A stretch of 16,418 nt of DNA from a candidate division FCPU426 bacterium (lineage in GTDB: Bacteria > Oederibacteriota > JAAXVQ01 > JAUVAV01): positions 1-16,418 of the forward strand of contig DAOWGI010000018.1 in NCBI GenBank assembly GCA_030637655.1, written 5' to 3'. The notes under the pieces were generated by a model. The model did not search any database. It saw only the letters and a list, made by a program, of their open reading frames with translations, and had not been told where the DNA came from. Positions 1 to 14,410 of the stretch are shown piece by piece. The position numbers and the translations under genes are program-made. The stretch's first letter is position 1. Every line of letters begins with the position of its first letter.

Positions 1-414
1 ATCCGGCTTTACCTCGTTGGTTAACCATTGGATGAGTGAGTTGAGCTCTTCTGTTTGTGAACCGGCTTCACCTTGCATGACTGAGATGGTCATTTTTTCC
101 AGACCCTTGGGATCTGTGGTTCCGCTTTTTTTGGAGATCCAGTGCAAAAGTTTTTTGGAGTTTAATAGAGTTTGAACCCAGCGCGGCAGATGTTTGAATA
201 TCGGCGCATATTCTTTAAGATAAACATTGAGGGCGCCGTAAAAAATCGGATTGTCAATGGTTAAGGGCGGATTCCAGGAAACGGGGATATACATCGGTGC
301 CAGCACAGCCGTATGGCCTTGAGCAGTTATGGCTTGGAAAACACTCTGGTTTTGCATGCAGTTTTGGCAGTAAAAGGTATTACCAAAACCCGGGACAACA
401 TATACAATTTTCAT
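1..414 (-). CDS. Glycosyltransferase family 4 (GT-B) protein, N-terminal 138 aa, truncated by window edge
   Basis: Manual translation, not in the ORF track. ATG at 414-412 overlaps the TGA of the upstream gene (ATGA) and the frame is open to position 1: MKIVYVVPGFGNTFYCQNCMQNQSVFQAITAQGHTAVLAPMYIP...IFYGALNVYLKE...WLTNEVKPD. The MKIxY..PG, GHxxxL and KPD pattern resembles GT4 N-terminal domains. Confidence 0.8.
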   Translation of the reverse strand, partial: MKIVYVVPGFGNTFYCQNCMQNQSVFQAITAQGHTAVLAPMYIPVSWNPPLTIDNPIFYGALNVYLKEYAPIFKHLPRWVQTLLNSKKLLHWISKKSGTTDPKGLEKMTISVMQGEAGSQTEELNSLIQWLTNEVKPD

Positions 415-1610
415 CGACCGGCTCCTTGAGCCTGGCTGCCAAAGACATAGACCCTTCCGTCTTCAGCGCCAATTACTATTTTGTCTTGGGCAAAGGCCGG
501 TGATCCGGTCAAGGCGGCACCGACCTGGTAAGACCAAACTTCCTCGCCATTGGTTAGGTTTATACAATACAACCATCCATCCGAGGAAGCTGCAATAATC
601 CGGTTCTGGCCTATAAGCGGGGAGCTATCCACATTGCCGCGGGTGGGAAAGGTCCAACGCTTTTTGCCGGTGGCTAATTCAAAACAATGCACCTGTTTGT
701 CGCGGGCACCAATCACCACCACAGCACTGTTTAGTGCCGGAGAAGCGATGATCGCGCTGCCCTCCAGATCATAGGTCCAAAGGATTTTGCGCTTGTCCAG
801 ATCAAGGCAGGTCAAGCTGCCCGCGTAATTGCCCACCACAGCCAAATGGCCGGCTATAGCGGCAGAGCCGGCCACATAGGAACCAATATCCAAAGAGAGA
901 ATCTTCTGGCCGCGCAGCGCAGAGACGATATGAAATTTGCTGTCACATCCTCCGAATACGATTTGGTCTTGATAAACAGCCGGTGTTCCGTTAATGAAAT
1001 TATCCGTGGGATAATTCCAGAGCACGTTTCCAGTATCAGTGTCCAGGCAATAGAGCGAATTGTCATAACTTCCCACAATGAGGTAGGGCTTGTTTTTCAA
1101 ATGAATAATATTGGCAGAACCCAGGATCGGCTCGTCAGTTGTGTGTTTCCATACCAGAGTGCCGTCCTTTGCACGCAGAGCATAGATAGTGCCGTCAGTG
1201 GAAGGCGCAAAAACCATATTATCAAAATACAGCGGAGGCGCTTCGATCGCTTTTTTGGTTTTGAAAGACCAGAGTTTTGTGCCAGTGTTCAGATCAAGGG
1301 CATAGAGGAAGGTGTCGTTGGAACCAATGAATACTTGGGAACCGTATATGACAGGAGAGGATTTGATGCTGTCCTGGGTTTGAAATGACCACAGTAGTTT
1401 TATGGCTGCAGGAAATTGAGCGTTGGTATTGCCGCTAAGTTGCGGGTCGTGACGGAAGATCGGCCAGTTTTCACTGCCGGGCACAGTTGCCGCTTTTTGA
1501 GAAATATCGGGCTGCTTTGAATGGTCTGTGGTTTTGGAACCACTGCATCCGAGAAAAGATGCGGCGAAAAAAAATACTATGATTGAAACTATGATTTTAT
1601 GTTTCTGCAT
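411..1610 (-). CDS. PQQ-binding-like / BamB-like beta-propeller lipoprotein
   Basis: 399 aa. Lipobox FLG-C after a hydrophobic stretch, WPIFRHD motif, repeated YALDxxTGxxLW blades. RBS AGGAG at 1625-1621. Confidence 0.85.
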   Translation of the reverse strand: MQKHKIIVSIIVFFFAASFLGCSGSKTTDHSKQPDISQKAATVPGSENWPIFRHDPQLSGNTNAQFPAAIKLLWSFQTQDSIKSSPVIYGSQVFIGSNDTFLYALDLNTGTKLWSFKTKKAIEAPPLYFDNMVFAPSTDGTIYALRAKDGTLVWKHTTDEPILGSANIIHLKNKPYLIVGSYDNSLYCLDTDTGNVLWNYPTDNFINGTPAVYQDQIVFGGCDSKFHIVSALRGQKILSLDIGSYVAGSAAIAGHLAVVGNYAGSLTCLDLDKRKILWTYDLEGSAIIASPALNSAVVVIGARDKQVHCFELATGKKRWTFPTRGNVDSSPLIGQNRIIAASSDGWLYCINLTNGEEVWSYQVGAALTGSPAFAQDKIVIGAEDGRVYVFGSQAQGAGR

Positions 1611-1625
1611 ATTCGTTCATCTCCT

Positions 1626-1653
1626 GTAAGGGCGCGATTCATCGCGCCCTTAC
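1626..1653. repeat. 28-bp REP-like palindrome (GTAA variant)
   Basis: GTAAGGGCGCGAT-TC-ATCGCGCCCTTAC, 13-bp perfect arms. Intergenic and directly abutting the RBS of the next gene. Confidence 0.85.
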
Positions 1654-1657
1654 AATA

Positions 1658-2719
1658 TTAAATATCATTCCAACACAAGGCGCCGGTAGGACATTTTTCA
1701 ATGCAGACTTTCAATACACGTTGCAATTCATCGTTTTCAAAACGATCAAAGGGTACGCCCATGCGAATATCAAATCCGCGATTGAAAAAGGTGAAACCGG
1801 ACAACACTTTCGCTTGTTCGCAAAGTTTGGTGCAGATTCCACATTTAATGCATTTGCCGGGTTCATAGATATAATCCTTAAACACATGCTGCGTATAAGG
1901 TATACGCTCTCCGGCAAAGGCAAATTGTTTGGCCAGGTGTTTATCCGCCTGGCTTCTCAAGCCACAGGCATCCTGTTTTCTGCAATCACAGTGCAGACAG
2001 CGGAGACTTTCACGCCTGGCTTCCTCGGGAGTGAAACCTGAGGACGGATTTTGGGGTTGTGTTCTTTGGTCCGGGGAAGCGTGTTGGGAAAAAACCATTA
2101 TTTCTTCCGGAGAAATTTTACGTATACTTGAGCTGAACCCGGGTTTTGTTTTAGGGGACCGGTTGTTTTGGGGCAACTGCGGTTTTTGCGTGGCATGGGT
2201 TTGGGCAGCGCGGATTAATTGCGCGATGGCAATTGGTTGGTCATGCAAATGCCGGCGGCATACCGTTTCACACGGCTGTTTGCATTCGTCGCAAAGCGAA
2301 GTATCCCAAGTATCTGTGGACAGAGCTATGGTTGCGAGCGCTTGGTTGAAATCGCCTGCCTGAATATGGCGTATCACCAAAGGGATGTTTAGGTTCTGAG
2401 CACAGGCCCGTTGGCAGGGAGCCAGACAGTCGCCGGTGTGTTCGCTCAAAAGTAAAGAAACGGCGTGCTTTCTGGCTGAGAGCACTTCCGGAGTATTGGT
2501 GCGCACTTCCATGCCTTCCTCTGCCAGGGCACTGCAGGAAGGAACCAGGGTTGTTTGGCCCTGGATGGCCACGAGGCAGACCATACACGAGCTGGAAGGT
2601 GTTAGCTCCTGTACAAAGCACAGGGTGGGTATGGAAATGCCGAGGCTCTGAGCGGCCGCTAAGACCGTGGTATTGGGTTCAACCGTGACGGCTTGATTGT
2701 CAATCTTAAGAGTAATCAT
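1658..2719 (-). CDS. Fe-S protein: NuoG/HydA-type N-terminal [2Fe-2S] domain + GltD/NfnB-like Fe-S domain + C-terminal ferredoxin domain, no catalytic domain
   Basis: 353 aa. MITLKID..IPTLC..SCMVCLV..PSC; EHTGDCLAPCQRAC; CDECKQPCETVCRR; GFTPEEARRESLRCLHCDC; KCIKCGICTKLC..RGF..CIEKCPTGAL. No GxGxxG motif, H-cluster motif or molybdopterin domain seen. Confidence 0.8.
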   Translation of the reverse strand: MITLKIDNQAVTVEPNTTVLAAAQSLGISIPTLCFVQELTPSSSCMVCLVAIQGQTTLVPSCSALAEEGMEVRTNTPEVLSARKHAVSLLLSEHTGDCLAPCQRACAQNLNIPLVIRHIQAGDFNQALATIALSTDTWDTSLCDECKQPCETVCRRHLHDQPIAIAQLIRAAQTHATQKPQLPQNNRSPKTKPGFSSSIRKISPEEIMVFSQHASPDQRTQPQNPSSGFTPEEARRESLRCLHCDCRKQDACGLRSQADKHLAKQFAFAGERIPYTQHVFKDYIYEPGKCIKCGICTKLCEQAKVLSGFTFFNRGFDIRMGVPFDRFENDELQRVLKVCIEKCPTGALCWNDI

Positions 2720-2722
2720 ATA

Positions 2723-5050
2723 TTATTCCCGAATAATCGCTTTTTGCGGGCAGACCTGCCGGCACACATCACACTTGGTACATAATTCCTGATCAATTTC
2801 CTGTTGTTGGTAGGGCCGCATTTCAATGGCATCGGCCGGACAATTTTGCACGCACTTGGTGCAGCCAATGCATTTGTCGGTAATTCGATAGGTGATGAGA
2901 GCAGTGCATTTTTTGGCCGGACAGCGTCCCTCGCTATGCGCGATGAATTCCTGTTCAAAATATTGTAAAGCGGATATTACCGGATTGGGAGCCGCGCGGC
3001 CTAATCCGCAGAGACTGTTGGTCTTGATCTCCCGGGCCAGCTCTTTTAACTGGGCGATATGACAGGCTTGTCCCTGCTTGGTGGTCAATTTATCCAGGAT
3101 CTCCAGCATGCGTTTGGTGCCGATCCGGCCAAAGGTGCATTTGCCGCAGGATTCATTCTGCGTAAAACGCATAAAGTATTTGGCAATATCTACGATACAA
3201 TCATCTTCATCCAAGACGATCATACCGCCGCTTCCCATAATTGTGCCCAATTGCTTTAAAGCCTCATAATCCACCGGCGTATCAATCAAGGCGGCGGGGA
3301 CGCAACCACCGGCCGGGCCGCCGATCTGGACGGCTTTTAGCGCTTTGTTATCTTTAATACCATTTCCGATTTTATAAATAATATCCCGGAGTGTGGTCCC
3401 CATTTCCACCTCAATCAATCCGCCTTTGTTGATTTTGCCGGCCAGAGCAAAGGCTTTGGTACCAGGGCTGTTCGGAGTTCCCAGGGAGGAAAATGATGCT
3501 GCCTCGTGTAATACAATCCACGGAACCAGGGAGAGTGTTTCGACGTTGTTGATCAGTGTCGGTTGATTCCATAGTCCCTGCTGTGCCGGAAAGGGTGGCC
3601 GAAGACGCGGATTGCCGCGATTACCCTCAATGGCTGCGAGCATGGCGGTTTCTTCGCCGCAGACAAAGGCGCCGGCGCTGACAATCAATTCCAAGTCCAG
3701 TCCGGCCAGAAGTTTTCTTTGCCTACTGAGCGAGATGGCTTTTTGCATTCGCTCAATAGCCAGAGGGTATTCGGCCCGTAGAAAGATATAGCCTTTTTTA
3801 ATTCCGCACGCAAAAGCGGCAATGGCCAGGCCTTCCAAAACCCGGAAAGGGAATGATTCCATGAGCATGCGATCCATAAAGGCGCCGGGATCACCCTCAT
3901 CACCGTTGCAAATAATATATTTGGTTTCGCTCTCAGCTTGTCGGACCGCAGCCCATTTGAGGTGAGTGGGGTAGCCCGCGCCCCCGCGTCCGCGCAATCC
4001 GCTTTGCGAAATGGTGGCGATAATCGTCTCAGGGGAATTCGCGCGTACGCAGGATTGCAGAGCTGCAAAACCGCGGTGACTCATGTATTCATCAATGTCC
4101 AATGGATCCAACTGACCACTGTGCTGGGTTGCGATCGGCTTTTGGCAGGAAAGGTAGTGATCCGCGGAAGTATCCCGGACAGGGGTAAGGTACCGGGTGA
4201 TGGGAGCTGGTTCCTCATCCGCAATAATTCTCTCCAACAAGGTAAATACGCTATGCCGCAATTGATGGAGCAGGGTTTTGGGTTTGAAATGCGCGGTGAG
4301 AATCGCTTCCACATCATCTTCTTTGACCAGTCCATAGTGGAAGCTTTTATGCTCCGGGGTTTCAATTTCAAGCAAGGGTACTTGATACGAGGTGCCGGTA
4401 CAGCCGACAATTTTGAGTTGAACCGGTAATTTTTCCCGGGAGATTCGTTTTTGCAGAGCAGTATGGATATGTTGGGAACCGGCAGCCACGCAACTGGAAC
4501 ACAGGCATATTTTTATGGTAGCAACAATTTTGTCGTGTTTAGGTGTAGGCTCTGCGATTGGGGGAGAATCTGCAAAACTCCGGAGAAAATCATAAAGAAT
4601 GAATCCAATGGATTTGGAGCTTACCGGGCCATAGGTTAATTCATCAATTTGGACAGCCGGTGCCAGCATGCAGCAGCCTAAACAAGCAACTTTGGTGAGG
4701 GTAAACAAACAATCGCGGTCCGTGTCCTCCTCAGCCGGGATTTTTAAATACAGTTTGAAATCATCATATAATTTTTCAGCGCCTTTGACATGGCAGGCTG
4801 TTCCAACGCATATTTTGATCAGGTGTTTGCCCGCCGGTTTTAGACGGAACTGGCTATAAAACGTGACGACCCCCATGATGGTTGCGGGTGAGATATCGGT
4901 AATCGCGCTTAAATGGTTTAATGCTTGCTCGGGCAAATAATGGTAGGTGTCGTGAATCGCGTGCAACAGGGGAACCAACTGGTGTTTGGTGCGGCCCAGG
5001 GACTTGACTATGTCTTGTATTTGATTTAAATCAACGGCTCCGGGTGTCAT
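2723..5050 (-). CDS. Fused NuoE/HydC-NuoF/HydB-like NAD(H)/FMN-binding Fe-S oxidoreductase with C-terminal 2x[4Fe-4S] domain
   Basis: NuoE part: CVGTAC...CLGCC. Second thioredoxin-like domain: CLCSSC...GC. NuoF part: GRGGAG, CNGDEGDPGAFMDR, GAFVCGEETA, INNVETL, MGSGG, ESCGKC, SLCGLG. C-terminus: HxxGxCPAKKC, CIGCTKCVQNCP, CTKCDVCRQVCP. Start moved from TTG 5071 to ATG 5050 (ATGA overlap with upstream stop); 775 aa. Confidence 0.9.
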   Translation of the reverse strand: MTPGAVDLNQIQDIVKSLGRTKHQLVPLLHAIHDTYHYLPEQALNHLSAITDISPATIMGVVTFYSQFRLKPAGKHLIKICVGTACHVKGAEKLYDDFKLYLKIPAEEDTDRDCLFTLTKVACLGCCMLAPAVQIDELTYGPVSSKSIGFILYDFLRSFADSPPIAEPTPKHDKIVATIKICLCSSCVAAGSQHIHTALQKRISREKLPVQLKIVGCTGTSYQVPLLEIETPEHKSFHYGLVKEDDVEAILTAHFKPKTLLHQLRHSVFTLLERIIADEEPAPITRYLTPVRDTSADHYLSCQKPIATQHSGQLDPLDIDEYMSHRGFAALQSCVRANSPETIIATISQSGLRGRGGAGYPTHLKWAAVRQAESETKYIICNGDEGDPGAFMDRMLMESFPFRVLEGLAIAAFACGIKKGYIFLRAEYPLAIERMQKAISLSRQRKLLAGLDLELIVSAGAFVCGEETAMLAAIEGNRGNPRLRPPFPAQQGLWNQPTLINNVETLSLVPWIVLHEAASFSSLGTPNSPGTKAFALAGKINKGGLIEVEMGTTLRDIIYKIGNGIKDNKALKAVQIGGPAGGCVPAALIDTPVDYEALKQLGTIMGSGGMIVLDEDDCIVDIAKYFMRFTQNESCGKCTFGRIGTKRMLEILDKLTTKQGQACHIAQLKELAREIKTNSLCGLGRAAPNPVISALQYFEQEFIAHSEGRCPAKKCTALITYRITDKCIGCTKCVQNCPADAIEMRPYQQQEIDQELCTKCDVCRQVCPQKAIIRE

Positions 5051-6759
5051 GGTTGAGAGCTTCCAATACAATAGAGGTGCTGCTCGCCGCGGATCAGAAT
5101 TTTCTGCTTCACAAAAGCGGGCGTGGCCACACAGGCTTCCGGCACTCTGGGATCGGCAATACTGGTGAAGGTGGAGTCGAGTCTGAATATTCTCATTACA
5201 CCCGAGGTGTCCAGTAGATAAACCATATCATCACAAATGATGGGCGAGGCCTTGAAGCCCGTCTCAAAGCGATGCTCCCAGTGCAAGGCCCCGGTTTGGG
5301 CATTCAGACAACTCACTTTACCAAAACTGGTGGGTACTATGAGAAAGCCCTGGCTTGCCACCGGGCTGGGGATGTCTGAGAGATTACGGTCATACTCCCA
5401 GACTACTTTTTGTTGCTGAATATTCACGCCGGCCAAGGTTGAGTACTGATTAATGAAAAACAGCATATCATTATCAAAGGCCGGAGAGGGGCCTATCTCG
5501 CCGCTGACTACCTCTTCCAGCTGCCACAGAGGCGCGCCGGTAGCGGGGTTATAGGAAACAACGAGCGGGTTAGAGGTTAATATCAGCTGCACACCGGTAC
5601 TGGTGGGAGCGATGATGGGTGATGCCCAGGAGGTATCCACCGGGCGCTTTTTGCTCCATTGTCGCTTCCCGGTAAACATATTAAAAGCCATGAGTTTGGC
5701 ATTCTGAGCATAATCGTACTGTACCAATAATGTATCCTGGTACGTGATCAAGGAGGAAGCATGCCCGTAATGATTGGCAGGCATTGGCAGTTTTTTCTCC
5801 CAAAGGATAGTGCCGTTAAAGTCCAGGGTCAGCAATTCTCCGGTGGCGAAAATCGCGGACACGAATCTGCCGTCTGTGGCCATCGTCGGCGCGGCCAGTC
5901 CGGTGTCTTCGCTGACTTTTGGAAGGGTGATCTCTTTTTTTGTGGTAGTGCTTTTTCTCCAAAGCAGTTCACCGGTCTTTAAATCGAAACAAAAGACTTC
6001 CCTGGAGGCAATGTCCGCTCCGCTGAGAAAGACACGGTTTTCCCACACAATGGGCGAGTTGAACCCCGGCTTGGGTATTTCGTTTTTCCAGAGTATGTTT
6101 TTATTGCTAGGAACGTCCCAGTCTGTGGGTGGAACCTGGTCAAAGGCTAAGCCCAATCCCTGATAGCCCCGGAATGAGGGCCAATTGGCTTTGAGAGTCA
6201 ACACATCAGGCAAGGGGATGGCCGGCTGTGCGTTTTGTTTGCCATCAGGAACGGACCAGGGAGCAGAAAGGAAACGGGGTAGCACCAACGCGAGCAGTAC
6301 CAGCAGCACGGCAAAACCTAAAAGGGAATACTGCAACCAACGCATTTTAGCGGGATGCTCTTCCAATTCTTTGAATTTATCAGGCTTGGGCAGCTGGCGT
6401 TTTAATTCATAGGCAAGTTTGAGAAAGAGTAAAAACAGGGAAAGTCCCCCCAAGAGCAGGTAAGCGCCGAATCGATTGAAAGCCAAGGCAGTAAAATGCG
6501 CCTTGCGAATCAAAAGGTCATAGGCCCGGACAGAGTCTAAAAATTCAGGCCCGCTGTTGCCCTGTTGAATCTGGGCGATGAGTTTAGGCATATGAACTGA
6601 GTTGATAGGGTCAGCGGTTTTAAAATGCCAGAAACTTAAACCCAGGATTATGCACACCACCGCGCTAAAACAACCGGCTACAATTGTGATATTACGGGCC
6701 AATTGGTAGTATTGAAATAAGCGTTGCTTTTTATCTTCCGGCAATTGCAAGGTGTTCAT
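5047..6759 (-). CDS. Membrane-anchored PQQ-binding-like beta-propeller protein (about 3 N-terminal TM segments)
   Basis: Three hydrophobic N-terminal segments, then NWPSFRG, NILWK, SPIVW, TGELLW and ASPII blades. Start set at ATG 6759 (ATGA overlap with upstream stop 6756-6758); 570 aa. Confidence 0.85.
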   Translation of the reverse strand: MNTLQLPEDKKQRLFQYYQLARNITIVAGCFSAVVCIILGLSFWHFKTADPINSVHMPKLIAQIQQGNSGPEFLDSVRAYDLLIRKAHFTALAFNRFGAYLLLGGLSLFLLFLKLAYELKRQLPKPDKFKELEEHPAKMRWLQYSLLGFAVLLVLLALVLPRFLSAPWSVPDGKQNAQPAIPLPDVLTLKANWPSFRGYQGLGLAFDQVPPTDWDVPSNKNILWKNEIPKPGFNSPIVWENRVFLSGADIASREVFCFDLKTGELLWRKSTTTKKEITLPKVSEDTGLAAPTMATDGRFVSAIFATGELLTLDFNGTILWEKKLPMPANHYGHASSLITYQDTLLVQYDYAQNAKLMAFNMFTGKRQWSKKRPVDTSWASPIIAPTSTGVQLILTSNPLVVSYNPATGAPLWQLEEVVSGEIGPSPAFDNDMLFFINQYSTLAGVNIQQQKVVWEYDRNLSDIPSPVASQGFLIVPTSFGKVSCLNAQTGALHWEHRFETGFKASPIICDDMVYLLDTSGVMRIFRLDSTFTSIADPRVPEACVATPAFVKQKILIRGEQHLYCIGSSQP

Positions 6760-8042
6760 GCGTTTTTCATACTTTCGTCGGATTGGGTTGGGCAGTATTC
6801 CATACAGCGGCCGCAACTGAGGCAGTGGAACCGGTCCGGTTCGTAGTCTTCACGTTGGGGCCGCTGCATAAGCACAATAATTTTTATTGATATTACCAGG
6901 CCGATAAAAATACCGAGCAGCCACAGTCCGGTCTTGAATTGCCGGCGAGTGCGCGCGGCTTGCGAGTAGAGCTCCGTAACCCGGGTCTGTTCTTGGCGAA
7001 AGGCATCGCTGTCCAGAGTGCTGCTCTGGATGGTATTGGTCTCTTCTTGATGGATTCTCTCTGCCAAGCTAACCGTCCGGTCCTGCCGGGAAAAGACATC
7101 GGATAATTGAGAAAAACCAAATCCCAAGGTAATTAGAATCAAGGGGATGCATGCGATGAAAATCCCCAACTTCTTTATCTGCTCCTGCTTGGTGGTTTTG
7201 TACAGTTTAGGCGAGGGCGGATTAATGGCATCAATGGGGCAGGCATTTTCACACAGCTTACACTGGGTGCATTCCCGGGGAGTGATGGTCAGATGTTTTT
7301 TGGAAAAGTAGGAGAACACACCCAGCAGCACGCCATAGGGACAGAAGAAACGGCAATAAGGGCGGGCAATGAAAATGCCAATGAGCAAAAAAGCCAGGCC
7401 CAAAAGCAGCATGCCGGAAGTGGCGGTCAGACGGAAAAAACCGACAAACGGATCAAAACGGCAGATGATAAAACCGCTGCCCGTGACAGTGAAAAGCACG
7501 GCCAGACCAAGATACAGATAAGGAATGAGACTGAGCACGTGTTTGAGGGGCTGGGGAAGTTTAAGGGGCTTGAAAATAACCACCTCTTGCAGCGCGCCCA
7601 AGGGACAGATCGAAGCGCAGAACACCCGGCCGAAAAATAATGCGAATACCAGTGGGAGCGCGAAGAATAAAATCACCCCGAGGGGTATAAGGTAATCTCC
7701 GGAAAACGAGAGCGTAACATTTTGGATGGAGCCAATCGGGCAGATACACCCTTTGCGAAAAAAACCGAAGTATAGAATGGAAGAGAGTGTGAGCAGATAC
7801 AAGCCCAAACGAGAACGTTTTTTAAGCGCGAAAAAAGCGGCCAGGCTCAAACCGATCAGCAGTACGCCAATATCCAGGTATTCGAAAAAATCCCGGCGCG
7901 GCTGCGGATGTTCGGGCGAGGGGATCTGGTACTGGGTCTCAAATTCCGGCGCCGGAAAGCGCTCTGCTGCCTTGGCAGGAGTTGAGACCAACACACCGGC
8001 TGTCAACAAAAGTATGAGGAAGAGGATTCTGAATTTATTCAT
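6756..8042 (-). CDS. NapH/MauN/NosR-C-terminal-like integral membrane polyferredoxin (4Fe-4S binding protein)
   Basis: 428 aa with many TM segments. Two CxxxCP motifs (FCASICPLG, YCRFFCPYG) plus CICP, and ferredoxin motifs CTQCKLCENACP and CLSCGRCMEYCP. The N-terminus is signal-peptide-like (AKA/A). Confidence 0.85.
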   Translation of the reverse strand: MNKFRILFLILLLTAGVLVSTPAKAAERFPAPEFETQYQIPSPEHPQPRRDFFEYLDIGVLLIGLSLAAFFALKKRSRLGLYLLTLSSILYFGFFRKGCICPIGSIQNVTLSFSGDYLIPLGVILFFALPLVFALFFGRVFCASICPLGALQEVVIFKPLKLPQPLKHVLSLIPYLYLGLAVLFTVTGSGFIICRFDPFVGFFRLTATSGMLLLGLAFLLIGIFIARPYCRFFCPYGVLLGVFSYFSKKHLTITPRECTQCKLCENACPIDAINPPSPKLYKTTKQEQIKKLGIFIACIPLILITLGFGFSQLSDVFSRQDRTVSLAERIHQEETNTIQSSTLDSDAFRQEQTRVTELYSQAARTRRQFKTGLWLLGIFIGLVISIKIIVLMQRPQREDYEPDRFHCLSCGRCMEYCPTQSDESMKNA

Positions 8043-8589
8043 TTTTTAAATATGCTTTCCTGGCCGGAATTCTGACAAAGGCATTCCCTGGGCAGACCCT
8101 GGCAATTGAGCATTCATTACAGTTTTTACAAAGATCATGGCGCACCTGCAGAAACAAAGAACCATTGCCGAAAAGATTGCAGCCTTGTACGCACTTGCCG
8201 CAGCCAATGCAGAGCGCTTCATTGACAGTGTATTCAAAAAAAGGTTCTTCCACAAATCGGCGCTGTAACGCGCCGGTGGGGCAGAGTTGATTTTCTGCGT
8301 CCGCGGTGAGGTGGGCGGCACCTGGCTGGAAATATCCAAAACAGAGATTGCAATATCCGCAGGTCTCAAATTCATGCACGCATTTCACAGCCGAGGGATT
8401 GATCACGCAGGCAGTGGCGCAGCGTCCGCATTTGACGCATTTTTTAGGGTCAATCTGCCAGACATAGCCGGCTTGGGCGGATTTAAAGAGACGGGTGAAC
8501 ACAAAGGAACCCAGCAGTAAAAGCAGCAGCTTATGCAATAGGTCTTTGATAAATTCCCGCCGGGTTAATTTGTTGGTTTTATTTTTCAT
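8035..8589 (-). CDS. Multi-[4Fe-4S] ferredoxin with twin-arginine signal (functionally NapG/MauM-like)
   Basis: 184 aa. LTRREFI followed by a hydrophobic stretch; CVKCGRCATAC, CGYCNLC, CPTGA, CIGCGKCVQGC, CKNCNEC...CP. Overlaps the next gene by 8 bp. Confidence 0.85.
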   Translation of the reverse strand: MKNKTNKLTRREFIKDLLHKLLLLLLGSFVFTRLFKSAQAGYVWQIDPKKCVKCGRCATACVINPSAVKCVHEFETCGYCNLCFGYFQPGAAHLTADAENQLCPTGALQRRFVEEPFFEYTVNEALCIGCGKCVQGCNLFGNGSLFLQVRHDLCKNCNECSIARVCPGNAFVRIPARKAYLKNE

Positions 8590-8617
8590 AATACCAATCC
8601 AAATATTATTTGAAATC

Positions 8618-8645
8618 GTAGGGAACAGTCGCGACTGTTCCCTAC
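8618..8645. repeat. 28-bp perfect GTAG...CTAC REP-like palindrome
   Basis: GTAGGGAACAGTCG|CGACTGTTCCCTAC is its own reverse complement. Confidence 0.9.
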
Positions 8646-8650
8646 AACTT

Positions 8651-8772
8651 CAGGTCGTAAACCTGCCCTTACGGTTTTTAAATGTCAACCACCTGGAGAG
8701 CGGGTTTGGAACCCGCCCCTACGGAATTAAATGTCAACCACCTGGGGGGCGGGTTTGGAACCCGCCCCTACG
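8651..8772 (-). repeat. Tandem cluster of one-ended GTAG/GTAA REP hairpins (BIME-like)
   Basis: Two 46-bp direct repeats (8678-8723 and 8727-8772; 44/46 identical, period 49). The 8727-8772 copy reads GTAGGGGCGGGTTCCAAACCCGCCCCCCAGGTGGTTGACATTTAA on the minus strand. A truncated unit GTAAGGGCAGGTTTACGACCTG lies at 8672-8651. Confidence 0.85.
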
Positions 8773-9744
8773 TTATTTTTTCACAAAGATCCTGACCTGT
8801 TTTTTAAAACGATCCACCACATAAATCCGGCCTTGTGAATCCGTTGCCAGACCCACGCCAGTCAAGCCTTCCTGGAAAGCATCCGGTGGTGCCACCACAC
8901 TGCTGAAAGCGCCGGTCTTAGTATACACTTTTATGCGTACCAGTCCTTTTTCAACGGTAATAAACTGTCCATTGGGAAGCAGGGTGAAATGCGTGGGGTT
9001 GCAGCAGCCGGCAAAGCCGTCCAGGTTCATGCCGGGCTTTCCCCAGTATGATTTTAAAGTGCCGTCAAGCGCATAGTTTTCCAGACGGTGCAGGCCCGGG
9101 TTAACTGCCCAGATGGTGCCATTGGCGCCGAAATTGACGTCAAAATACGGACTCGGAATTTTAAATCCCTCTGCGTGTCGATGCCCGCTTTTGAGTCCGA
9201 TGAATCGCTTTAACCTGCCTTGAGTATCAAAAAGCCAGAGCTGTTTATGCCCGTAGTCCGCGACCACCACATGAGAAGTATTGGCAGCCATACCGGTTAT
9301 AAATGCTTTTTCACCTAAGGTGTTCCAGGTTTGCTTAAGTTTTCCTTTATAAGTATAGACCTCAATGTGGTCTTGGTAAGCCACATAGATCGCTTCTGAG
9401 GTAAGCGCGGCCAGGCTGTGCGGTTGCTGTTTTAAGGCAAAGGAAGCGCTGGCTGTTTTATCGGAATTGAATATATGAAGTTTCTTATCCGTGGCTACCA
9501 GCAGCACATCGTCTTTAGTGAGAGTGACACATTTCGGCAGAGCATCTTGGAAAAGAATCGGATTCAGTTCCTGGTGCGTGATCCGGCTTGGTTTTACTTT
9601 TTTAAATTGATCAATATTGTACGCATAAGGGTTTTCCGCCTGGGGTACGGGTTGCTTAGCTTTGCATCCGGTGGTCTTGCCGACGACCAAAGCCAGACCA
9701 CCGGCGAGTATGGTTTGCATAAATTGTTTTCGGGTCATTTTCAT
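8773..9744 (-). CDS. NHL-repeat beta-propeller protein with Tat-like (RK) / lipoprotein signal and GCCNP motif
   Basis: 323 aa. N-terminus MKMTRKQF...TTG-C. NHL-like blades VVVADYGHKQL and GLATDSQGRIYVVDRFKKQVRIF. FAGCCNP at about 8995-9015. Confidence 0.75.
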   Translation of the reverse strand: MKMTRKQFMQTILAGGLALVVGKTTGCKAKQPVPQAENPYAYNIDQFKKVKPSRITHQELNPILFQDALPKCVTLTKDDVLLVATDKKLHIFNSDKTASASFALKQQPHSLAALTSEAIYVAYQDHIEVYTYKGKLKQTWNTLGEKAFITGMAANTSHVVVADYGHKQLWLFDTQGRLKRFIGLKSGHRHAEGFKIPSPYFDVNFGANGTIWAVNPGLHRLENYALDGTLKSYWGKPGMNLDGFAGCCNPTHFTLLPNGQFITVEKGLVRIKVYTKTGAFSSVVAPPDAFQEGLTGVGLATDSQGRIYVVDRFKKQVRIFVKK

Positions 9745-9760
9745 AATGGTTGCCTATTTT

Positions 9761-9788
9761 GTAGGGGCACGGCATGCCGTGCCCCTAC
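9761..9788. repeat. 28-bp perfect GTAG...CTAC REP-like palindrome overlapping a stop codon
   Basis: GTAGGGGCACGGCA|TGCCGTGCCCCTAC. Bases 9787-9785 are the TAG stop of the upstream gene. Confidence 0.9.
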
Positions 9789-11239
9789 GGTTTTAATTCC
9801 AAACATATCATTTGTTCAAAATCACGCAAGAGCATTTTAGAGCCGGCGATTGCGATCGGTGCCCATGATTCCCGGCCTTGCAAGACTTTGACCTGACTTA
9901 ATTGTAAATAGCGGGTACTACTGGCTTTGGCTATGGTAAGCATACCATGATCGTCCAGAATAAAGATCTTATTATCCGCGATAATAAAAGGGCCTAAACC
10001 AAAACGGTGATCGCGTCCACTTTGCCACTTTATCTTTCCCTCCGGGGTCAGGCAGACCAGCTGGCGGCTAAATTCACCCGCGTCATTGGGCATAACGCTA
10101 TACAAATATCCTTTATAATATACAGGGGTATGCTGTTCACAGGCAAATACTTCTTTATCTAATTTGAACAGACTCTCTATGCTAAAACGGTTGTTGGCTT
10201 GAGTCAGCTTAAACATCATACTGCCGCCGCCATAGCCGGCAGTGACAAAAATGTTGTTTTCCGGAATCCGGACCGGGGAGGGACTGATCACGGATTGGTT
10301 CCAGGCCTTGGTCTGCCAGAGGATTTGGCCTGTGTCCGGCCCAAAGGCGGATATGCCGGCCATGCCGCCGATCGCGCAATAGACATACATCTTTTGCTGA
10401 AAAAAGGTCATGGGTATAATCGAAGAGTGGGACATTTTAAATTTATCCGGATTGGGAGTTTCCCAGAGTATTTTCCCGGTTTCCAGATCCACACCCAGGA
10501 GCAAGGCTTTGCCGCCCGGTGCCAGGACCGCAGTTGAACCATCAATGATTGGGCACTGACCGGTGTACCACAAGGGCACCTCGGTTCCGTATTGCGCAGC
10601 CAGATCCAGTCCCCATTTAAAATCACCGGTAATGGCATCCACGCACATGACCTGGCATTTGGGCCCCATGGTCACGACATATTTATCCGAAACCGCGGGA
10701 ACAGTTCTGGAAATGCCGTGATTGCGCTTGATGGGAATACGATAGGCTCTTCGCCAGATTTCTTTGCCGGTATCCAGGGAAAAACAACGCAACGCATCGC
10801 TCTGTTTTTCTTTGTCATAATCCAGTACATAGACGCGTCCGTTGCCCACAGCAGCGCCGGCATAGCCTTCACCCAGCTTTTGTGACCACAGAATGGGCAG
10901 GTCGGATTCGTTTAAGGTGCTGCGTAGGGGGGTGGATTCGCGGACCACGTTATTGTATTGTCCGCCGCGAAATCCGCTCCATGTAGGGGCACGGTGCACC
11001 GTGCCCCTACCAGAAAATGGAATTTCTGAGAATTTTGTAAACGTACCTTTGATATTTATTTTCTGGACAGCTAAGGCTTTGGCCATTTCATCTTGAGGGG
11101 GAGCGCTTCGCATTTGGATTGGTATTTTGGGCACGACTTGAAACCACATGGCAATGAGCACCAGACCCGCGATAGAGAGGGAGGCGGTGGTAAGTGTGTT
11201 GATAAACTGGATATTGGGTTTTTTAAAAGTAATCTGCAT
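9785..11239 (-). CDS. PQQ-binding-like beta-propeller protein with N-terminal membrane anchor (first gene of operon)
   Basis: N-terminal TM segment, WSGFRGG, LWSQKLGEGY, DTGKEIW and ETGKILW blades. The ORF-track TTG at 11311 coincides with the -35 box, so the start is set at ATG 11239; 484 aa. Confidence 0.85.
   Translation of the reverse strand: MQITFKKPNIQFINTLTTASLSIAGLVLIAMWFQVVPKIPIQMRSAPPQDEMAKALAVQKINIKGTFTKFSEIPFSGRGTVHRAPTWSGFRGGQYNNVVRESTPLRSTLNESDLPILWSQKLGEGYAGAAVGNGRVYVLDYDKEKQSDALRCFSLDTGKEIWRRAYRIPIKRNHGISRTVPAVSDKYVVTMGPKCQVMCVDAITGDFKWGLDLAAQYGTEVPLWYTGQCPIIDGSTAVLAPGGKALLLGVDLETGKILWETPNPDKFKMSHSSIIPMTFFQQKMYVYCAIGGMAGISAFGPDTGQILWQTKAWNQSVISPSPVRIPENNIFVTAGYGGGSMMFKLTQANNRFSIESLFKLDKEVFACEQHTPVYYKGYLYSVMPNDAGEFSRQLVCLTPEGKIKWQSGRDHRFGLGPFIIADNKIFILDDHGMLTIAKASSTRYLQLSQVKVLQGRESWAPIAIAGSKMLLRDFEQMICLELKP
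10983..11010. repeat. 28-bp perfect GTAG...CTAC palindrome located in frame inside a CDS
   Basis: GTAGGGGCACGGTG|CACCGTGCCCCTAC, 24/28 identical to 9761-9788. Translated as GRGTVHRAPT. Confidence 0.9.
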
Positions 11240-11282
11240 GATCAAAATCCAATATATTAGGGGTGAATAATTATTTGCCCTT

Positions 11283-11311
11283 AATTTATCAGTCCAATAA
11301 GCATGTGTCAA
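11283..11311 (-). promoter_or_regulatory. Sigma70-type promoter of the redox operon
   Basis: Minus strand: TTGACA (11311-11306), 17-nt spacer, TAAATT (11288-11283), with extended -10 TG at 11291-11290. About 45 nt upstream of ATG 11239. Confidence 0.7.
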
Positions 11312-11621: not shown

Positions 11622-12266
11622 TCAATTTAATCTGTTTTTCACCTCCTTTATAAATTTGCCGGAACCAAAGAAAGTCAATTTATGAAAAGTGCCATGGCAT
11701 TTATCAGCTTCATGATCCGGTTCAATCACCAGGCTTAAATATATTTGGCGTCGTTTTTCTTTGTTTTCAGACAATGCCAGATAAGTGGGATGAGGTTTAA
11801 GGGGAAGCAGGGGGTGGATTCTGCCATAAGCATAACTGTGAAAAGAACTAAAAAGCCACTTGTCAGGATGGTCCACCAACTGGGCTTTAAGCGGATTGCG
11901 GTCAATATACCTTAAGCAGGTCAACATATGCTTGTCATCCTGGACAATTGTGGAACAAAACCGGTCTCCCCAGAAATGGCCGGAAATCTTATATTTTTTA
12001 TTAAAATATTTGGCATAAAACGTTTTGATTTCACACATAACCTGGGAGAGGTCGGAATTGTTTTCAATGCGAATGATCATATGGAAGTGATTCATCATGG
12101 GTGTGAAAGCATACAAAATAACGCCATACTTCGATAAAATCAGTTTAAGGATTTTGCATAAAGCTTTTTGATCCTGCTTTTTCTTTAAAAATAGGCGTTT
12201 ACCGTTGGTGCGTGAAGTAATGTGGTAGGTCAAGCCAGGTGTTTTCAATCGAAGCGGTCGGCCCAT
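11622..12266 (-). CDS. REP-associated tyrosine transposase (RAYT; Y1 HUH, IS200/IS605 superfamily)
   Basis: 214 aa, frame intact. MGRPLR..PGLTYHITSR; HUH motif MMNHFHM; GHFWGDRF; catalytic Tyr in YIDRNP; WLFSSF. RBS AGGAGG at 12278-12273. Confidence 0.9.
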   Translation of the reverse strand: MGRPLRLKTPGLTYHITSRTNGKRLFLKKKQDQKALCKILKLILSKYGVILYAFTPMMNHFHMIIRIENNSDLSQVMCEIKTFYAKYFNKKYKISGHFWGDRFCSTIVQDDKHMLTCLRYIDRNPLKAQLVDHPDKWLFSSFHSYAYGRIHPLLPLKPHPTYLALSENKEKRRQIYLSLVIEPDHEADKCHGTFHKLTFFGSGKFIKEVKNRLN

Positions 12267-12334: not shown

Positions 12335-12345
12335 AAAAAAATAAA

Positions 12346-12404
12346 AAAAAGTGGCTGGCACCAGTTCGGCACCAGTTCAAAAAGTGGCTGGCACCAGTTC
12401 GGCA
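12346..12404. repeat. Nested direct repeats upstream of RAYT
   Basis: AAAAAGTGGCTGGCACCAGTTCGGCA occurs twice (12346-12371, 12379-12404). GGCACCAGTTC occurs three times (12357, 12368, 12390). Confidence 0.85.
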
Positions 12405-12405
12405 G

Positions 12406-12519
12406 ATGGTCGTGGGCATGGTGCTGGATAACCGGATTTTATGGTTATTGCTGGACCTGGTGGTCATCGTGGGATGTTGCGGAATCGGCTTTCTCCTGTT
12501 GTTTAATAAAATCCGCTGA
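12406..12519 (+). CDS. Small single-TM protein (37 aa) or 3' remnant of a membrane-protein gene
   Basis: Manual translation: MVVGMVLDNRILWLLLDLVVIVGCCGIGFLLLFNKIR*. Hydrophobic helix with a basic tail; no clear RBS. Confidence 0.35.
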   Translation: MVVGMVLDNRILWLLLDLVVIVGCCGIGFLLLFNKIR

Positions 12520-12825: not shown

Positions 12826-13272
12826 ATGAAGTCCAAGGTATATAAAGGCGAAGCCACCGCCGAAAGACGAAAATATCCAAGAATTCCCCTGACGCTTTCC
12901 GTGCAATTTATGATGGTCGACCGGGAAAAACTTTCTGCTGTGCTCGAAACGGTTTCAGATGATCTGGGCGTGGAAGGGATGGCCATGGTCAGCACGACCA
13001 AACTTTCAAGAGACCAGAAACTGCTGCTCACCCTGTTGGTCCCGGAAGACGCCAATGACAAGCTGATGAATCACAATGCCTCCATCTGCACGGAAAAAGG
13101 CTGCATCCCAGTGGCAATTTTTTCCCGCGTGGCATGGTGCGAGGATGTGGATGATCACAAATACCGCATTGGGGTGCAGTTTATCGAAATCACGGAGACC
13201 GGCCGGCAGATACTCAAGGATTTCTTCCTGGATTATAAACTGGACTATTCCAATTCAAACCTCATGCACTGA
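12826..13272 (+). CDS. PilZ domain protein (putative c-di-GMP receptor)
   Basis: 148 aa. ERRKYPR (RxxxR), DLGVEG (DxSxxG variant), RVAW...YRIGVQF. RBS-like AAGGGGTG upstream. Confidence 0.85.
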   Translation: MKSKVYKGEATAERRKYPRIPLTLSVQFMMVDREKLSAVLETVSDDLGVEGMAMVSTTKLSRDQKLLLTLLVPEDANDKLMNHNASICTEKGCIPVAIFSRVAWCEDVDDHKYRIGVQFIEITETGRQILKDFFLDYKLDYSNSNLMH

Positions 13273-13293: not shown

Positions 13294-13491
13294 AAACCTG
13301 CCTAGCCATTTCTTTTTTTACAGCATGGACGGAAACCGGTATTCAGCGATATGCTCCACTGCACTTTCTTCGAAGAATCTTTGTTTAGGGGACCAAGTAA
13401 ATATTATGCCGGCGGCAGAGCCAATCCAAAAATCGCTTTCTTCTGGAACCCGTGGCTGTTACAATGGCAGAAAATAGTCAAGGAGGAAGCT

Positions 13492-13680
13492 ATGTTTGGT
13501 CTGGGATTACCGGAACTTCTGGTAATATTGGTTATCATTTTATTGTTGTTCGGAGCCAGAAAATTGCCTGAAATTGGAAGGGCTTTGGGAAAAGGGATGA
13601 AAATGTTTAAAAAAGAGGCCAATGAACTTAGGGAGGCAGTTTCGGATATTGAAGAAGACGAAAAAACTAAAAAAAAGTAA
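13492..13680 (+). CDS. tatA: Sec-independent translocase TatA/TatE subunit
   Basis: [35 protein letters not shown], 62 aa. RBS AGGAGG at 13481-13486 supports ATG 13492 over the ORF-track start at 13351. Confidence 0.95.
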
Positions 13681-13717
13681 CTCGCCTTCCGGCCGCAACC
13701 AACAGCCGGAGCAGAGC

Positions 13718-14410
13718 ATGACCTTTCTTTCACACCTGGAAGAATTGCGTCAACGAATTTTCTGGATGGTTATTACCCTGGTTCTGGCGACGATTGGTGC
13801 GTATCTGTTTGCAGAGGAATTAATCCTGTTTTTTTCACGCCCAATTGAGGAATTGGTGTTTATCAAACCGTTCGAAGCATTCCTGGTAAAAATCAAAGTG
13901 TCCCTATTTGCCGGTTGCTTGATGGCTATTCCGGTTATCTTTTATCAACTCTGGAGTTTTGTTGCCAAAGGAGTGACCCGAAAAGAGAAAAAAATTATTC
14001 TGGTGTATTTGCCGCTTTCCATTTTGTTGTTTTTTTCCGGAGCGCTTTTTGCCAATACGCTCATCGTGCCGGTGGGCATGCAATTTTTTCTGAGTCAATC
14101 CATGGCCACCTTAATTCCCATGATTTCGATTAGCGCTTATTTTTCTTTTCTGTTTTGGATGCTCTTGGTTTTTGGGCTGATGTTTGAACTGCCGCTGGTG
14201 GTTTTCTTTTTATCCCAATTCGGCCTGCTTACACCGGACGCGTTGAAAAGGCAACGCCGGGTTATTATCGTGTTGTTATTCATTATAGCTGCTTTTTTGA
14301 CCCCGCCGGATATCATTTCACAGGTTCTGCTGGCCGTGCCGCTGTGGTTGCTGCTGGAAATCAGTATTTTTATTGCCGGGGTGGTGTATAGGAAAAAACA
14401 GTCCCGGTAG
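13718..14410 (+). CDS. tatC: Sec-independent translocase TatC
   Basis: MTFLSHLEELRQR, PFEAF, YQLWSFV, FGLMFELP, AAFLTPPD, PLWLLLEISI; about 6 TM. Start uncertain: the frame is open from 13622, and GGAG precedes ATG 13718. Confidence 0.93.
   Translation: MTFLSHLEELRQRIFWMVITLVLATIGAYLFAEELILFFSRPIEELVFIKPFEAFLVKIKVSLFAGCLMAIPVIFYQLWSFVAKGVTRKEKKIILVYLPLSILLFFSGALFANTLIVPVGMQFFLSQSMATLIPMISISAYFSFLFWMLLVFGLMFELPLVVFFLSQFGLLTPDALKRQRRVIIVLLFIIAAFLTPPDIISQVLLAVPLWLLLEISIFIAGVVYRKKQSR

Follow-up and report, generated by a model that had tools for sequence, protein, structure and literature searches.

Two groups of described systems come close to the operon analyzed here. The first is the Bfu family of bifurcating enzymes, defined in its review by a BfuBC core with flavin mononucleotide (FMN) and six iron-sulfur (Fe-S) clusters; the main text of that review, in which the words 'NapH', 'propeller' and 'periplasm' do not occur, describes the enzymes as reversible, with varied third substrates, and as bifurcating electrons from a mid-potential third substrate (Schut et al. 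2022, PMC9304861). The second group comprises the NapH-like proteins, which are described in a survey of flavinylated gene clusters as modular units of electron transfer across the membrane, in the service of periplasmic reductases or oxidases; neither 'propeller' nor 'NHL' occurs in its main text (Meheust et al. 2021, PMC8238504). The DNA studied here, called the window throughout, is a stretch of 16,418 bases from a candidate division FCPU426 bacterium. It makes up the entire contig C87 of the assembly (120 contigs, 3.28 Mb, 45% G+C, 91.6% complete) and contains nine genes (g1 to g9, Table 1) that place a Bfu-type module (g6, g7) and a NapG/NapH-like pair (g3, g4) beside four beta-propellers (g1, g2, g5, g8) and a glycosyltransferase (g9). 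These nine genes very probably encode one conserved redox machine that spans the cell envelope. It is a real, widespread and apparently undescribed system made from known modules, a variant of both the Bfu family and the NapH-like systems. An earlier note on this DNA had known of no characterized system of such composition, and searches of the full-text literature found no description of one (supplements of PMC9304861 and PMC8238504 not included).

The evidence for a single system begins with gene order. With g4 as the query and E ≤1e-90 as the limit for an ortholog, 5 of 40 related genomes proved to carry the gene, and each of these has the cluster, its order unchanged. A collection of 185,579 species, each represented by one genome, was scanned by pattern; at least 599 stretches were found, at least 579 of which encode a relative of g4 (hundreds of species genomes at least). 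In the best 80 of these at least 599 loci, which were the ones analyzed, g4 lies beside g3 and/or g5 in 80 of 80 and beside both in 73. We then counted all nine genes in the 36 loci that have full 10-kb flanks, using same-strand tblastn matches above an identity threshold for each gene (g1 38%, g2 27%, g3 45%, g4 40%, g5 26%, g6 40%, g7 29%, g8 33%, g9 28%). Genes g3, g4, g5 and g6 are present in all 36 loci, g1 in 35, g2 and g7 in 34, g8 in 31 and g9 in 23; all nine genes occur in 22 loci and the order of the window in 18. The order and adjacency of g1 to g7 are retained in 32 of the 36, across many phyla. This arrangement is far beyond chance. Conserved synteny had been set beforehand as the test of the idea, and the homologs are not scattered, either in the five relatives or in the best 80 loci.

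These counts bear directly on the possibility that we are looking at mere juxtaposition, two or three unrelated operons packed together. In six Planctomycetota-labelled loci g8 and g9 do lie ~5 kb upstream of the cluster, not downstream, and one Omnitrophota locus shows no Bfu genes in the stretch fetched, as separate operons would allow. But the block from g1 to g7 holds together over too many phyla, and too many junctions in the window (four) overlap or nearly abut, for us to give juxtaposition more than a very slight chance.

The packing of the genes in the window is as the earlier note had described it. All nine reading frames lie head to tail on the minus strand, with ATGA overlaps at 414-411, 5050-5047 and 6759-6756; the g4 start codon (ATG 8042) overlaps the end of g3, whose stop is at 8035-8037, by 8 bp, and a 3-bp gap (2720-2722) separates g6 from g7. 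Translational coupling is found at four junctions, which overlap or almost abut.

The record titles of the carriers name Bacteroidota, Planctomycetota, Verrucomicrobiota, Kiritimatiellae, Lentisphaeria, KSB1, Calditrichota, Muiribacteriota, Hydrogenedentota, Omnitrophota, Armatimonadetes, Aegiribacteria, Poribacteria, Neomarinimicrobiota and a Spirochaetaceae metagenome-assembled genome. Among cultured Marinilabiliales, the full cluster is present in Marinifilum flexuosum DSM 21950, M. fragile JCM 15579, Sunxiuqinia elliptica, Gaoshiqia sediminis, Labilibaculum sp. K2S and Ancylomarina sp. DW003. DNA nearly identical to the locus itself occurs in three sequencing runs labelled cold seep metagenome (X1-X3; 81-90% of sampled words).

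A few further families recur in the orthologous loci (at least 6 of 86 clustered sources): a LolD-like ABC ATPase (35 loci), FtsX/MacB-type permeases (20 and 10 loci) and a short unannotated open reading frame (ORF; 6 loci). In addition, a small ORF with four cysteines (Cys4) recurs: 37 of the 71 loci with g3 have it immediately upstream of that gene, and the printed copies carry a Tat-type RR motif. Six queries did not find this small Tat Cys4 peptide in the window's genome (best E 0.017, over 32 residues that include the hydrophobic anchor), and repetitive extragenic palindromes (REPs) fill the corresponding gap. Some loci have extra genes, between g6 and g7 or at other places, which were considered as possible subunits and rejected: by sequence, compared by eye, they look like unrelated insertions.

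The cytoplasmic part of the system is centered on g6, a 775-residue fusion protein with about six clusters (Pfam: Complex1_51K, 1.6e-44; 2Fe-2S_thioredx, 2.1e-44; NADH_4Fe-4S; a C-terminal dicluster domain). Its closest solved relatives are NfnB (9n5u_B, 7e-186), 9bov_B and the StnB-type chain 8oh5_B; bifurcating HydB comes next, with NuoF of complex I far behind. Thus the HydBC-like core proposed in the earlier note is correct as to its NuoE/NuoF type, but the nearest branch is Stn/Nfn of the Bfu family and not the HydBC of hydrogenases. The motifs for FMN and NADH (GRGGAG...KW and NGDEGDPGAF) are invariant in 58 of 58 orthologs; the NuoE-type [2Fe-2S] cysteine set, the eight C-terminal cysteines and H712/C717/C722 are each kept in the same 58. 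By its ligand columns, the ortholog family as a whole agrees with the BfuBC core of FMN and six clusters.

Two sites in g6 vary. In the N-terminal thioredoxin (Trx)-like domain, 47 of the 58 orthologs have four cysteines (C193, C194, C224, C228), and the remaining 11, the window included, have a shifted set (C189, C/D191, C194, C224; residues 189-228, window positions ~4388-4507). Carriers of the shifted set include loci labelled Verrucomicrobiota, Pirellulales, Aegiribacteria and Muiribacteriota, and the two groups look like a compensated ligand swap. The second site is the NuoF-type CxxCxxC motif, where the window, as assembled, has glycine in place of the third cysteine (codon 3130-3128; residue 648 counted from TTG 5071, 641 from ATG 5050). 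Cysteine is present here in 55 of 58 orthologs and glycine in three: the window, a Muiribacteriota locus (L016) and an Armatimonadetes locus (L093).

The partner of g6 is a reduced protein. g7 aligns to 9bov_A in two pieces (residues 4-171 and 545-671), and also to 8oh5_C and 9n5u_A; the alignment skips the flavin adenine dinucleotide (FAD) and NADP(H) domains of the A subunit, and the pterin-like C-terminus is absent from g7. Because the flavin/NADP(H) domains and the pterin-like C-terminus are left out in this way, we read g7 as the Fe-S wire of StnA/NfnA. A relaxed Pfam scan of the g7 C-terminus gave nothing useful. Most orthologs of g7 are longer (~520-540 residues) and retain one Rossmann remnant, which is gone in five loci (the window, G004, L016, L068 and L085); since these five are spread over both g6 ligand groups, the remnant has been lost at least twice.

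Compared with NfnABC and StnABC (Bfu Type 1), then, g6 matches NfnB/StnB over the whole NuoF core and the C-terminal dicluster (7e-186 to 3e-176), and g7 resembles the A subunits in their N-terminal and middle Fe-S domains. The differences are threefold: BfuC and BfuB form one chain in g6; g7 has no FAD/NADP(H) domains and no pterin-like C-terminus, the loss being total in the window, while most loci keep the Rossmann remnant; and the 'third substrate' of this operon is apparently a membrane conduit. HydABC shares the NuoE/NuoF-type core with g6, but the operon has no H-cluster domain. The same genome also encodes a canonical [FeFe] hydrogenase operon with separate HydC, HydA and HydB genes on contig C27 (4134-8776; HydA matches Fe_hyd_lg_C at 4.6e-95). 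Since the true HydABC sits there, g6 and g7 are a second, dedicated Bfu paralog.

The conduit itself would be formed by g3 and g4. The earlier note had called them a NapG/NapH-like pair, and Pfam, NCBIfam and the cysteine motifs uphold the call, though at scores under the NCBIfam cut-offs. For g4, Fer4_5 is matched at 5.8e-14 (52.2 bits, cut-off 22) and TIGR02163 at 3e-14, but the NapH cut-offs of NCBIfam are not reached (TIGR02163, 53.2 vs 213 bits; NF007013, 44.6 vs 234), and for g3 the NapG family NF007012 gives 20.9 bits where 269 are needed. We therefore name the two proteins NapG/NapH-like, and not NapGH, because the scores lie so far under the family cut-offs. Their ligand positions are strongly conserved. 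In g3, R10, F13, the 16 motif cysteines and C70 are invariant in 24 of 24 aligned sequences (A4), R11 is found in at least 90%, and the motifs are conserved likewise in a set of 71. In g4, 14 of 14 sequences from several phyla (A1) keep C142x3C146P, C230x3C234P, C258..C268P, C407..C417P, C99, C101 and C194. From hydropathy (one weak helix was placed by eye), the CX3CP and 4-Cys motifs of g4 are predicted to be cytoplasmic, and C99, C101 and C194 to lie at the outer face; a relaxed Pfam scan of its C-terminal third gave nothing useful. In one relative (G034, L015 5918-7209) the g4 ortholog is in two parts, ORFs of 280 and 150 residues, with two TGA and one TAG codons inside the match. Among named proteins, the one closest to g4 carries the annotation 'candidate division FCPU426'.

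The extracytoplasmic location that the earlier note had assumed is likewise borne out by prediction: g3 has a Tat signal, and g1, g2, g4, g5 and g8 have signal peptides, lipoboxes or transmembrane anchors. A tatA-like gene and a tatC gene lie ~2 kb from the operon (Table 1), and in the relative G004 an ORF that resembles TatC by its N-terminal sequence also flanks the cluster (L011 13014-13778). The neighboring tat genes of the window may serve the export of g3.

It is instructive to compare this pair with NapGH, NosGH and MauMN. The likeness lies in a Tat-exported ferredoxin with four clusters (g3) next to a polytopic protein with two CX3CP and two cytoplasmic [4Fe-4S] motifs (g4), and in an operon in which the pair adjoins propeller genes; NosZ and MauB, the heavy chain of methylamine dehydrogenase, are beta-propellers. 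In contrast to NapGH, the scores are far under the cut-offs (g4, 53 vs 213 bits; g3, 21 vs 269), g4 begins with a cleavable signal peptide and has an additional transmembrane pair with a periplasmic insert, and the operon has no NapC or cytochrome partner; its electron source is apparently a cytoplasmic flavoprotein and not necessarily quinol. With the flavinylated NapH-like systems the operon shares a concept, in which a PF12801 membrane Fe-S protein serves as the module that transfers electrons across the membrane. Those systems, however, are defined by an FMN-binding domain and ApbE, and Pfam finds neither FMN_bind nor ApbE among the nine proteins; the ApbE genes of this genome are on contigs other than C87.

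The membership of g4 in the NapH/MauN family, by Fer4_5 and a weak match to TIGR02163, raises the question of quinones. NapH has been called a putative quinone-binding subunit in the flavinylation survey (PMC8238504), and the genome has two UbiA-family genes. Hence g4 could be a quinol dehydrogenase or quinone reductase, with g6, g7 and g4 forming an alternative NADH:quinone oxidoreductase and g3 drawing on the pool. Yet the NapH cut-off is missed by the wide margin given above, the best menA match is below its cut-off and no MqnA was found in the 91.6%-complete genome, and the Fe-S domains of g7 look like a direct wire. We consider coupling through quinones improbable.

As the earlier note had stated, no hydrogenase, pterin enzyme or haem subunit is found among the genes of the window, and none of the nine proteins contains a CxxCH haem-binding motif. 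Such subunits are also absent from the families that recur in orthologous loci. A conventional catalytic subunit beyond the contig edge was sought by proxy, in two of the five relatives' loci whose neighboring genes were scanned with Pfam or NCBIfam: no hydrogenase, formate dehydrogenase or aldehyde ferredoxin oxidoreductase lies beside the cluster in these two. In relatives the cluster ends after the glycosyltransferase, and the scanned neighbors are a LolD-like ABC ATPase, an FtsX/MacB-type permease and a further propeller.

All four beta-propellers of the earlier note were recovered, three as eight-bladed PQQ_2 propellers (g1, g5, g8) and one as a six-bladed NHL propeller (g2). Two of them have invariant residues in their loops. 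In g1, numbered from ATG 11239, these are K171-R172-N173-H174-G175-x-S177-R178-T179 and Q228-C229-P230, both in long loops; the mean column identity of g1 is 53% across phyla (A3, 24 sequences), so that it is conserved as strongly as the Fe-S subunits. In g2 the motif F244-x-G246-C247-C248-N249-P250 and residues E265, K266 and R270 are kept in 71 of 71 orthologs, and the motif is also present in 25 of 25 sequences of a second alignment (A2). The AlphaFold2 model of g2 (predicted local distance difference test, pLDDT, 89.3; 24 strands) suggests that these residues probably share one face at blades 4-5, on loops offset by even strand numbers. A vicinal Cys-Cys pair amid lysine, arginine and glutamate would be in keeping with thiol chemistry on a substrate that is anionic or contains sulfur. 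g8 also has an invariant G-G-C222-D (Table 1).

Structure comparison places both proteins with known folds. The g1 model (pLDDT 88.4) matches YxaL (Z 34.3), Rv3035 (32.2), BamB (32), tetrathionate hydrolase 6l8a (30.2, 365 residues) and alcohol dehydrogenases dependent on pyrroloquinoline quinone (PQQ; ~26), and g2 matches the Lin41 and TRIM2 NHL domains (Z ~29) as well as peptidylglycine lyase (25.6), SOQ1 (23.7) and NHLRC2 (23.3). For BamB, YxaL, 6l8a and the NHL domains of SOQ1 and NHLRC2 the likeness is one of fold (Z 30-34 for g1, 23-29 for g2); by contrast, identity is 12-20%, neither GCCNP nor KRNHGxSRT appears in the alignments, and the contexts are unrelated. In the ESM Atlas g1 falls only in generic 'BamB family / PQQ repeat' clusters. 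A profile search with g2 against 1.84 billion representatives found no informative fusion in the best 150 (147 single-domain proteins of 304-391 residues and three giant multi-NHL proteins), and a relaxed Pfam scan of the transmembrane region of g5 gave nothing useful. Complex prediction for the g1 propeller and the g2 NHL domain with mature g3 scored 0.01 against a mark of 0.32 and is uninformative either way.

Two familiar identities for the PQQ_2 propellers were rejected. As PQQ-dependent dehydrogenases, g1, g5 and g8 score 18-88 bits with TIGR03075, where 480 are required; for the pqq genes, the 91.6%-complete genome gave no pqqE match over the cut-off and no pqqC match, with a pqqC control that matched no control genome. 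As BamB, the best of them (g8) reaches 159 of 285 bits with TIGR03300, and the fold alone is shared.

Together, these observations lead to our best explanation, which we hold with moderate confidence: a system of Fe-S clusters and one FMN only, in which an NADH/ferredoxin module would be wired outward through the membrane to the propellers. It is built on domain content, cofactor-ligand motifs, export signals, synteny and invariant residues; the assembly, the direction of flow, the role of ferredoxin and the terminal site we infer from domain content and synteny. In this scheme g6 would bind NAD(H), and probably ferredoxin too, and would oxidize NADH. Its electrons would be carried by g7 to the cytoplasmic clusters of g4, which would hand them across the membrane to the Tat-exported ferredoxin g3, and g3 would serve the membrane- or lipid-tethered propellers g1, g2, g5 and g8. 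The whole would act as a periplasmic reductase, or as an electron outlet for a fermenter that also owns HydABC.

As to the direction of flow, we judge outward transfer from NADH and ferredoxin the most likely, with moderate confidence. If the chain ran inward, a periplasmic donor would be oxidized at the propellers, and its electrons would pass through g3 and g4 to g6 and g7, where bifurcation would deliver them to NAD+ and ferredoxin, making the system one of electron uptake. This would suit the reversibility of Bfu enzymes and their use of a mid-potential third substrate (PMC9304861), a chain made of low-potential cluster types, and the NapH-like systems, which are reported with oxidases as well as with reductases (PMC8238504). 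However, no oxidizing cofactor (PQQ, haem, Mo or a Cu ligand set) can be recognized in the propellers, most of the named carriers are described as fermenters, and the genome already has a HydABC for disposing of electrons, which fits an outlet better. Uptake is in our view unlikely.

At the outer end of the wire, terminal chemistry would probably take place on the Cys-Cys face of g2 and/or at the KRNHGxSRT and QCP loops of g1. It would then be thiol-based or metal-assisted, and not based on PQQ, haem or pterin. That the terminal thiol site is on g2 is a tentative proposal. It is also doubtful, though conceivable, that a haem-free, all-Fe-S wire with no periplasmic flavin, possibly with a bifurcating Bfu module, leads to a new periplasmic reductase centered on the g2 Cys-Cys pair together with g1. 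Candidate acceptors for such a reductase are sulfur species, disulfides, sulfoxides, or Fe(III)/Mn(IV) of the Labilibaculum type. Labilibaculum strains reduce Fe(III), and one of them Mn(IV), while fermenting glucose, and the report describing them gives the genes of this 'fermentative type' of reduction as unknown (PMC5760507). The Labilibaculum genomes found here to have the cluster (L042, L062) are from other strains than those metal-reducing ones; we treat the connection between cluster and metal reduction as a lead, not a link.

The propellers might, alternatively, be the clients of a maintenance or maturation conduit. A few electrons would then suffice to build, activate or repair the propeller site, for example by keeping the g2 Cys-Cys pair reduced, and the propeller reaction itself would be non-redox, such as one that hydrolyzes or lyses a sulfur compound or glycan. 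In such conduit roles NosR/NosGH act for NosZ, and MauMN for methylamine dehydrogenase. The periplasmic enzymes of nos, nirS and exaA clusters are beta-propellers, as is methylamine dehydrogenase, which is served by the NapG/NapH-like MauMN. The survey of flavinylated systems places NapH-like proteins in nos, nirS and exaA clusters, where they accompany these periplasmic enzymes (PMC8238504). PQQ-like propellers without a cofactor can be hydrolases, as in the tetrathionate hydrolase matched by g1, and the lumenal Trx-NHL-CTD protein SOQ1, whose NHL domain is matched by g2, is described as a thiol-driven methionine sulfoxide reductase (10.1101/2024.11.01.621559). Set against this is the size of the machinery: a 775-residue Bfu flavoprotein with about six clusters, present in 36 of 36 full-flank loci, seems too much for a trickle of electrons. 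We give a maintenance or maturation role a low probability.

Several points also weigh against the outward wire that we prefer, or against the unity of the nine genes. Chains made wholly of [4Fe-4S] clusters are usually of low potential, and it is not obvious that electrons from NADH would simply run downhill. None of the propellers can be assigned a redox cofactor, the matches of g1 and g2 to BamB, YxaL, TRIM-NHL and others being at the level of fold only, and no intramembrane cofactor that bridges the bilayer is evident in g4. Being short of one NuoF-cluster ligand, the window's own copy of g6 could be impaired. Finally, g8 and g9 are not universal (31 and 23 of 36 loci), and the Omnitrophota locus mentioned above has the membrane/periplasmic half only, with no Bfu genes in the ~4 kb fetched past the last cluster gene; because of this locus, the two halves can be genetically separate.

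The least constant gene is g9, of which the window holds only the beginning. Its fragment of 138 residues has no Pfam match of its own, even in a relaxed scan, and the remainder was not found in the assembly. It is, however, 64% identical to the N-terminus of a 445-residue ortholog in G004, and this full-length protein matches Glyco_transf_4 and Glycos_transf_1 (6.8e-21 and 5.8e-14), in keeping with the earlier call of a GT4 enzyme. C16, C19 and C164 are invariant in the family. A sugar or glycan as the substrate of the system, the earlier suggestion, was not adopted as our main reading, as it stands on this one GT4 gene, present in 23 of 36 full-flank loci.

The start of the operon required one correction. 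The earlier note had begun g1 at TTG 11311; the most likely start is ATG 11239, where the orthologs begin, and the TTG instead opens a TTGACA hexamer. This hexamer belongs to the 'strong promoter' of that note, of which the -35/-10 pair is present (Table 1). Its strength is not borne out, the pair being a consensus match only, and the region holds about as many promoter-like matches as chance would give (18, vs 17.1 expected from shuffles).

The longer gaps are indeed filled by REPs, GTAG...CTAC-type palindromes at 1625-1654, 8611-8652, 8746-8768 and 9761-9788, and a second copy of the 8746-8768 type was seen by eye at ~8700-8720. One run's contig (X1) omits 52 bases within 8720-8773, equal to one REP copy, and has four further letters between; this suggests either that the population varies in REP copy number or that the assembly is at fault here. 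An IS200-like Y1 transposase gene (11622-12266, minus strand; Y1_Tnp, 8.1e-19), a candidate RAYT for the genome's REP family, adjoins the operon on its upstream side, and just upstream of this transposase gene a ~22-nt motif (..GAACTGGTGCCAGCCACTTTTT..) is repeated in two or three tandem copies at ~12340-12425.

Table 1. Features of the nine-gene operon and its surroundings in the window (strand '.', no orientation; TM, transmembrane; aa, amino acids)
Feature	Position	Strand	Remarks
Sigma-70-like -35/-10 pair	11283..11311	-	TTGACA, 17 nt, TG-TAAATT; 10/12 matches; ~44 nt upstream of g1 start
g1, TM anchor and eight-bladed PQQ_2/BamB-like propeller	9785..11239	-	PQQ_2 2.6e-18; TM by hydropathy
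REP palindrome, 28 bp, GTAG...CTAC	10983..11010	.	In frame within g1, in the linker between TM anchor and propeller; ~9 extra residues
REP palindrome	9761..9788	.	Spans g1 stop and g1-g2 gap
g2, exported six-bladed NHL propeller, lipoprotein-like in the window	8773..9744	-	PF01436 35.7 bits, cut-off 20
REP palindromes	8611..8768	.	Occupy g2-g3 gap
g3, NapG-like Tat-exported ferredoxin	8035..8589	-	TRREF twin-arginine signal; four 4-Cys cluster motifs
g4, NapH/NosH-like polytopic membrane Fe-S protein	6756..8042	-	Signal peptide; two CX3CP; two CxxCxxCxxxCP
g5, three TM helices and PQQ_2 propeller	5047..6759	-	Always after g4
g6, fused NuoE-like and NuoF-like protein (BfuC-BfuB)	2723..5050	-	N-terminal Trx-like domain; C-terminal 2x[4Fe-4S] domain
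g7, Fe-S-only remnant of StnA/NfnA (BfuA)	1658..2719	-	[2Fe-2S] (Fer2_4), Fer4_20, C-terminal CxxCxC...C and ferredoxin motif
REP palindrome	1625..1654	.	g7-g8 gap
g8, lipoprotein (LGC lipobox) PQQ_2 propeller	411..1610	-	Invariant G-G-C222-D
g9, start of GT4 glycosyltransferase, 138 codons	1..414	-	N-terminal CxxC; cut by contig end; full length ~430-445 aa
tatA-like and tatC genes	13489..14410	+	TatC Pfam 6.5e-64; ~2 kb from operon, facing away

Two other features of the window are recorded here. An ORF with a PilZ domain (12826-13272, plus strand; 7.2e-09) lies between the transposase and the tat genes. Toward the far end of the contig, an AcrB-family gene (14613-16157, plus strand) stops after 514 codons, covering 1-487 of the 1021 profile positions, and seems to be continued in another frame (16147-16416) to the contig end; a frameshift, an error of sequencing or a gene split in two would account for this.

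Three features are new here: the invariant GCCNP motif, probably on one face of the NHL propeller g2, the invariant KRNHGxSRT loop of g1, and the repeated loss of the Rossmann remnant from g7. The window's variant is a natural 'deletion', in which both that remnant and the small Tat Cys4 peptide are dispensable, and the cultured Marinilabiliales that carry the cluster make the question of its function directly testable. If our explanation is true, the export of cytoplasmic reducing power to the periplasm without quinones, cytochromes or flavinylated proteins would be widespread and unstudied, and the Bfu family of bifurcating enzymes would gain a member that is wired to the membrane. There would also be a function for abundant 'BamB-like/PQQ-like' and NHL proteins, to which annotation pipelines give misleading names. 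Should the terminal component prove to be a reductase, the system would be an energy-relevant electron outlet for anaerobic sediment fermenters of many phyla.

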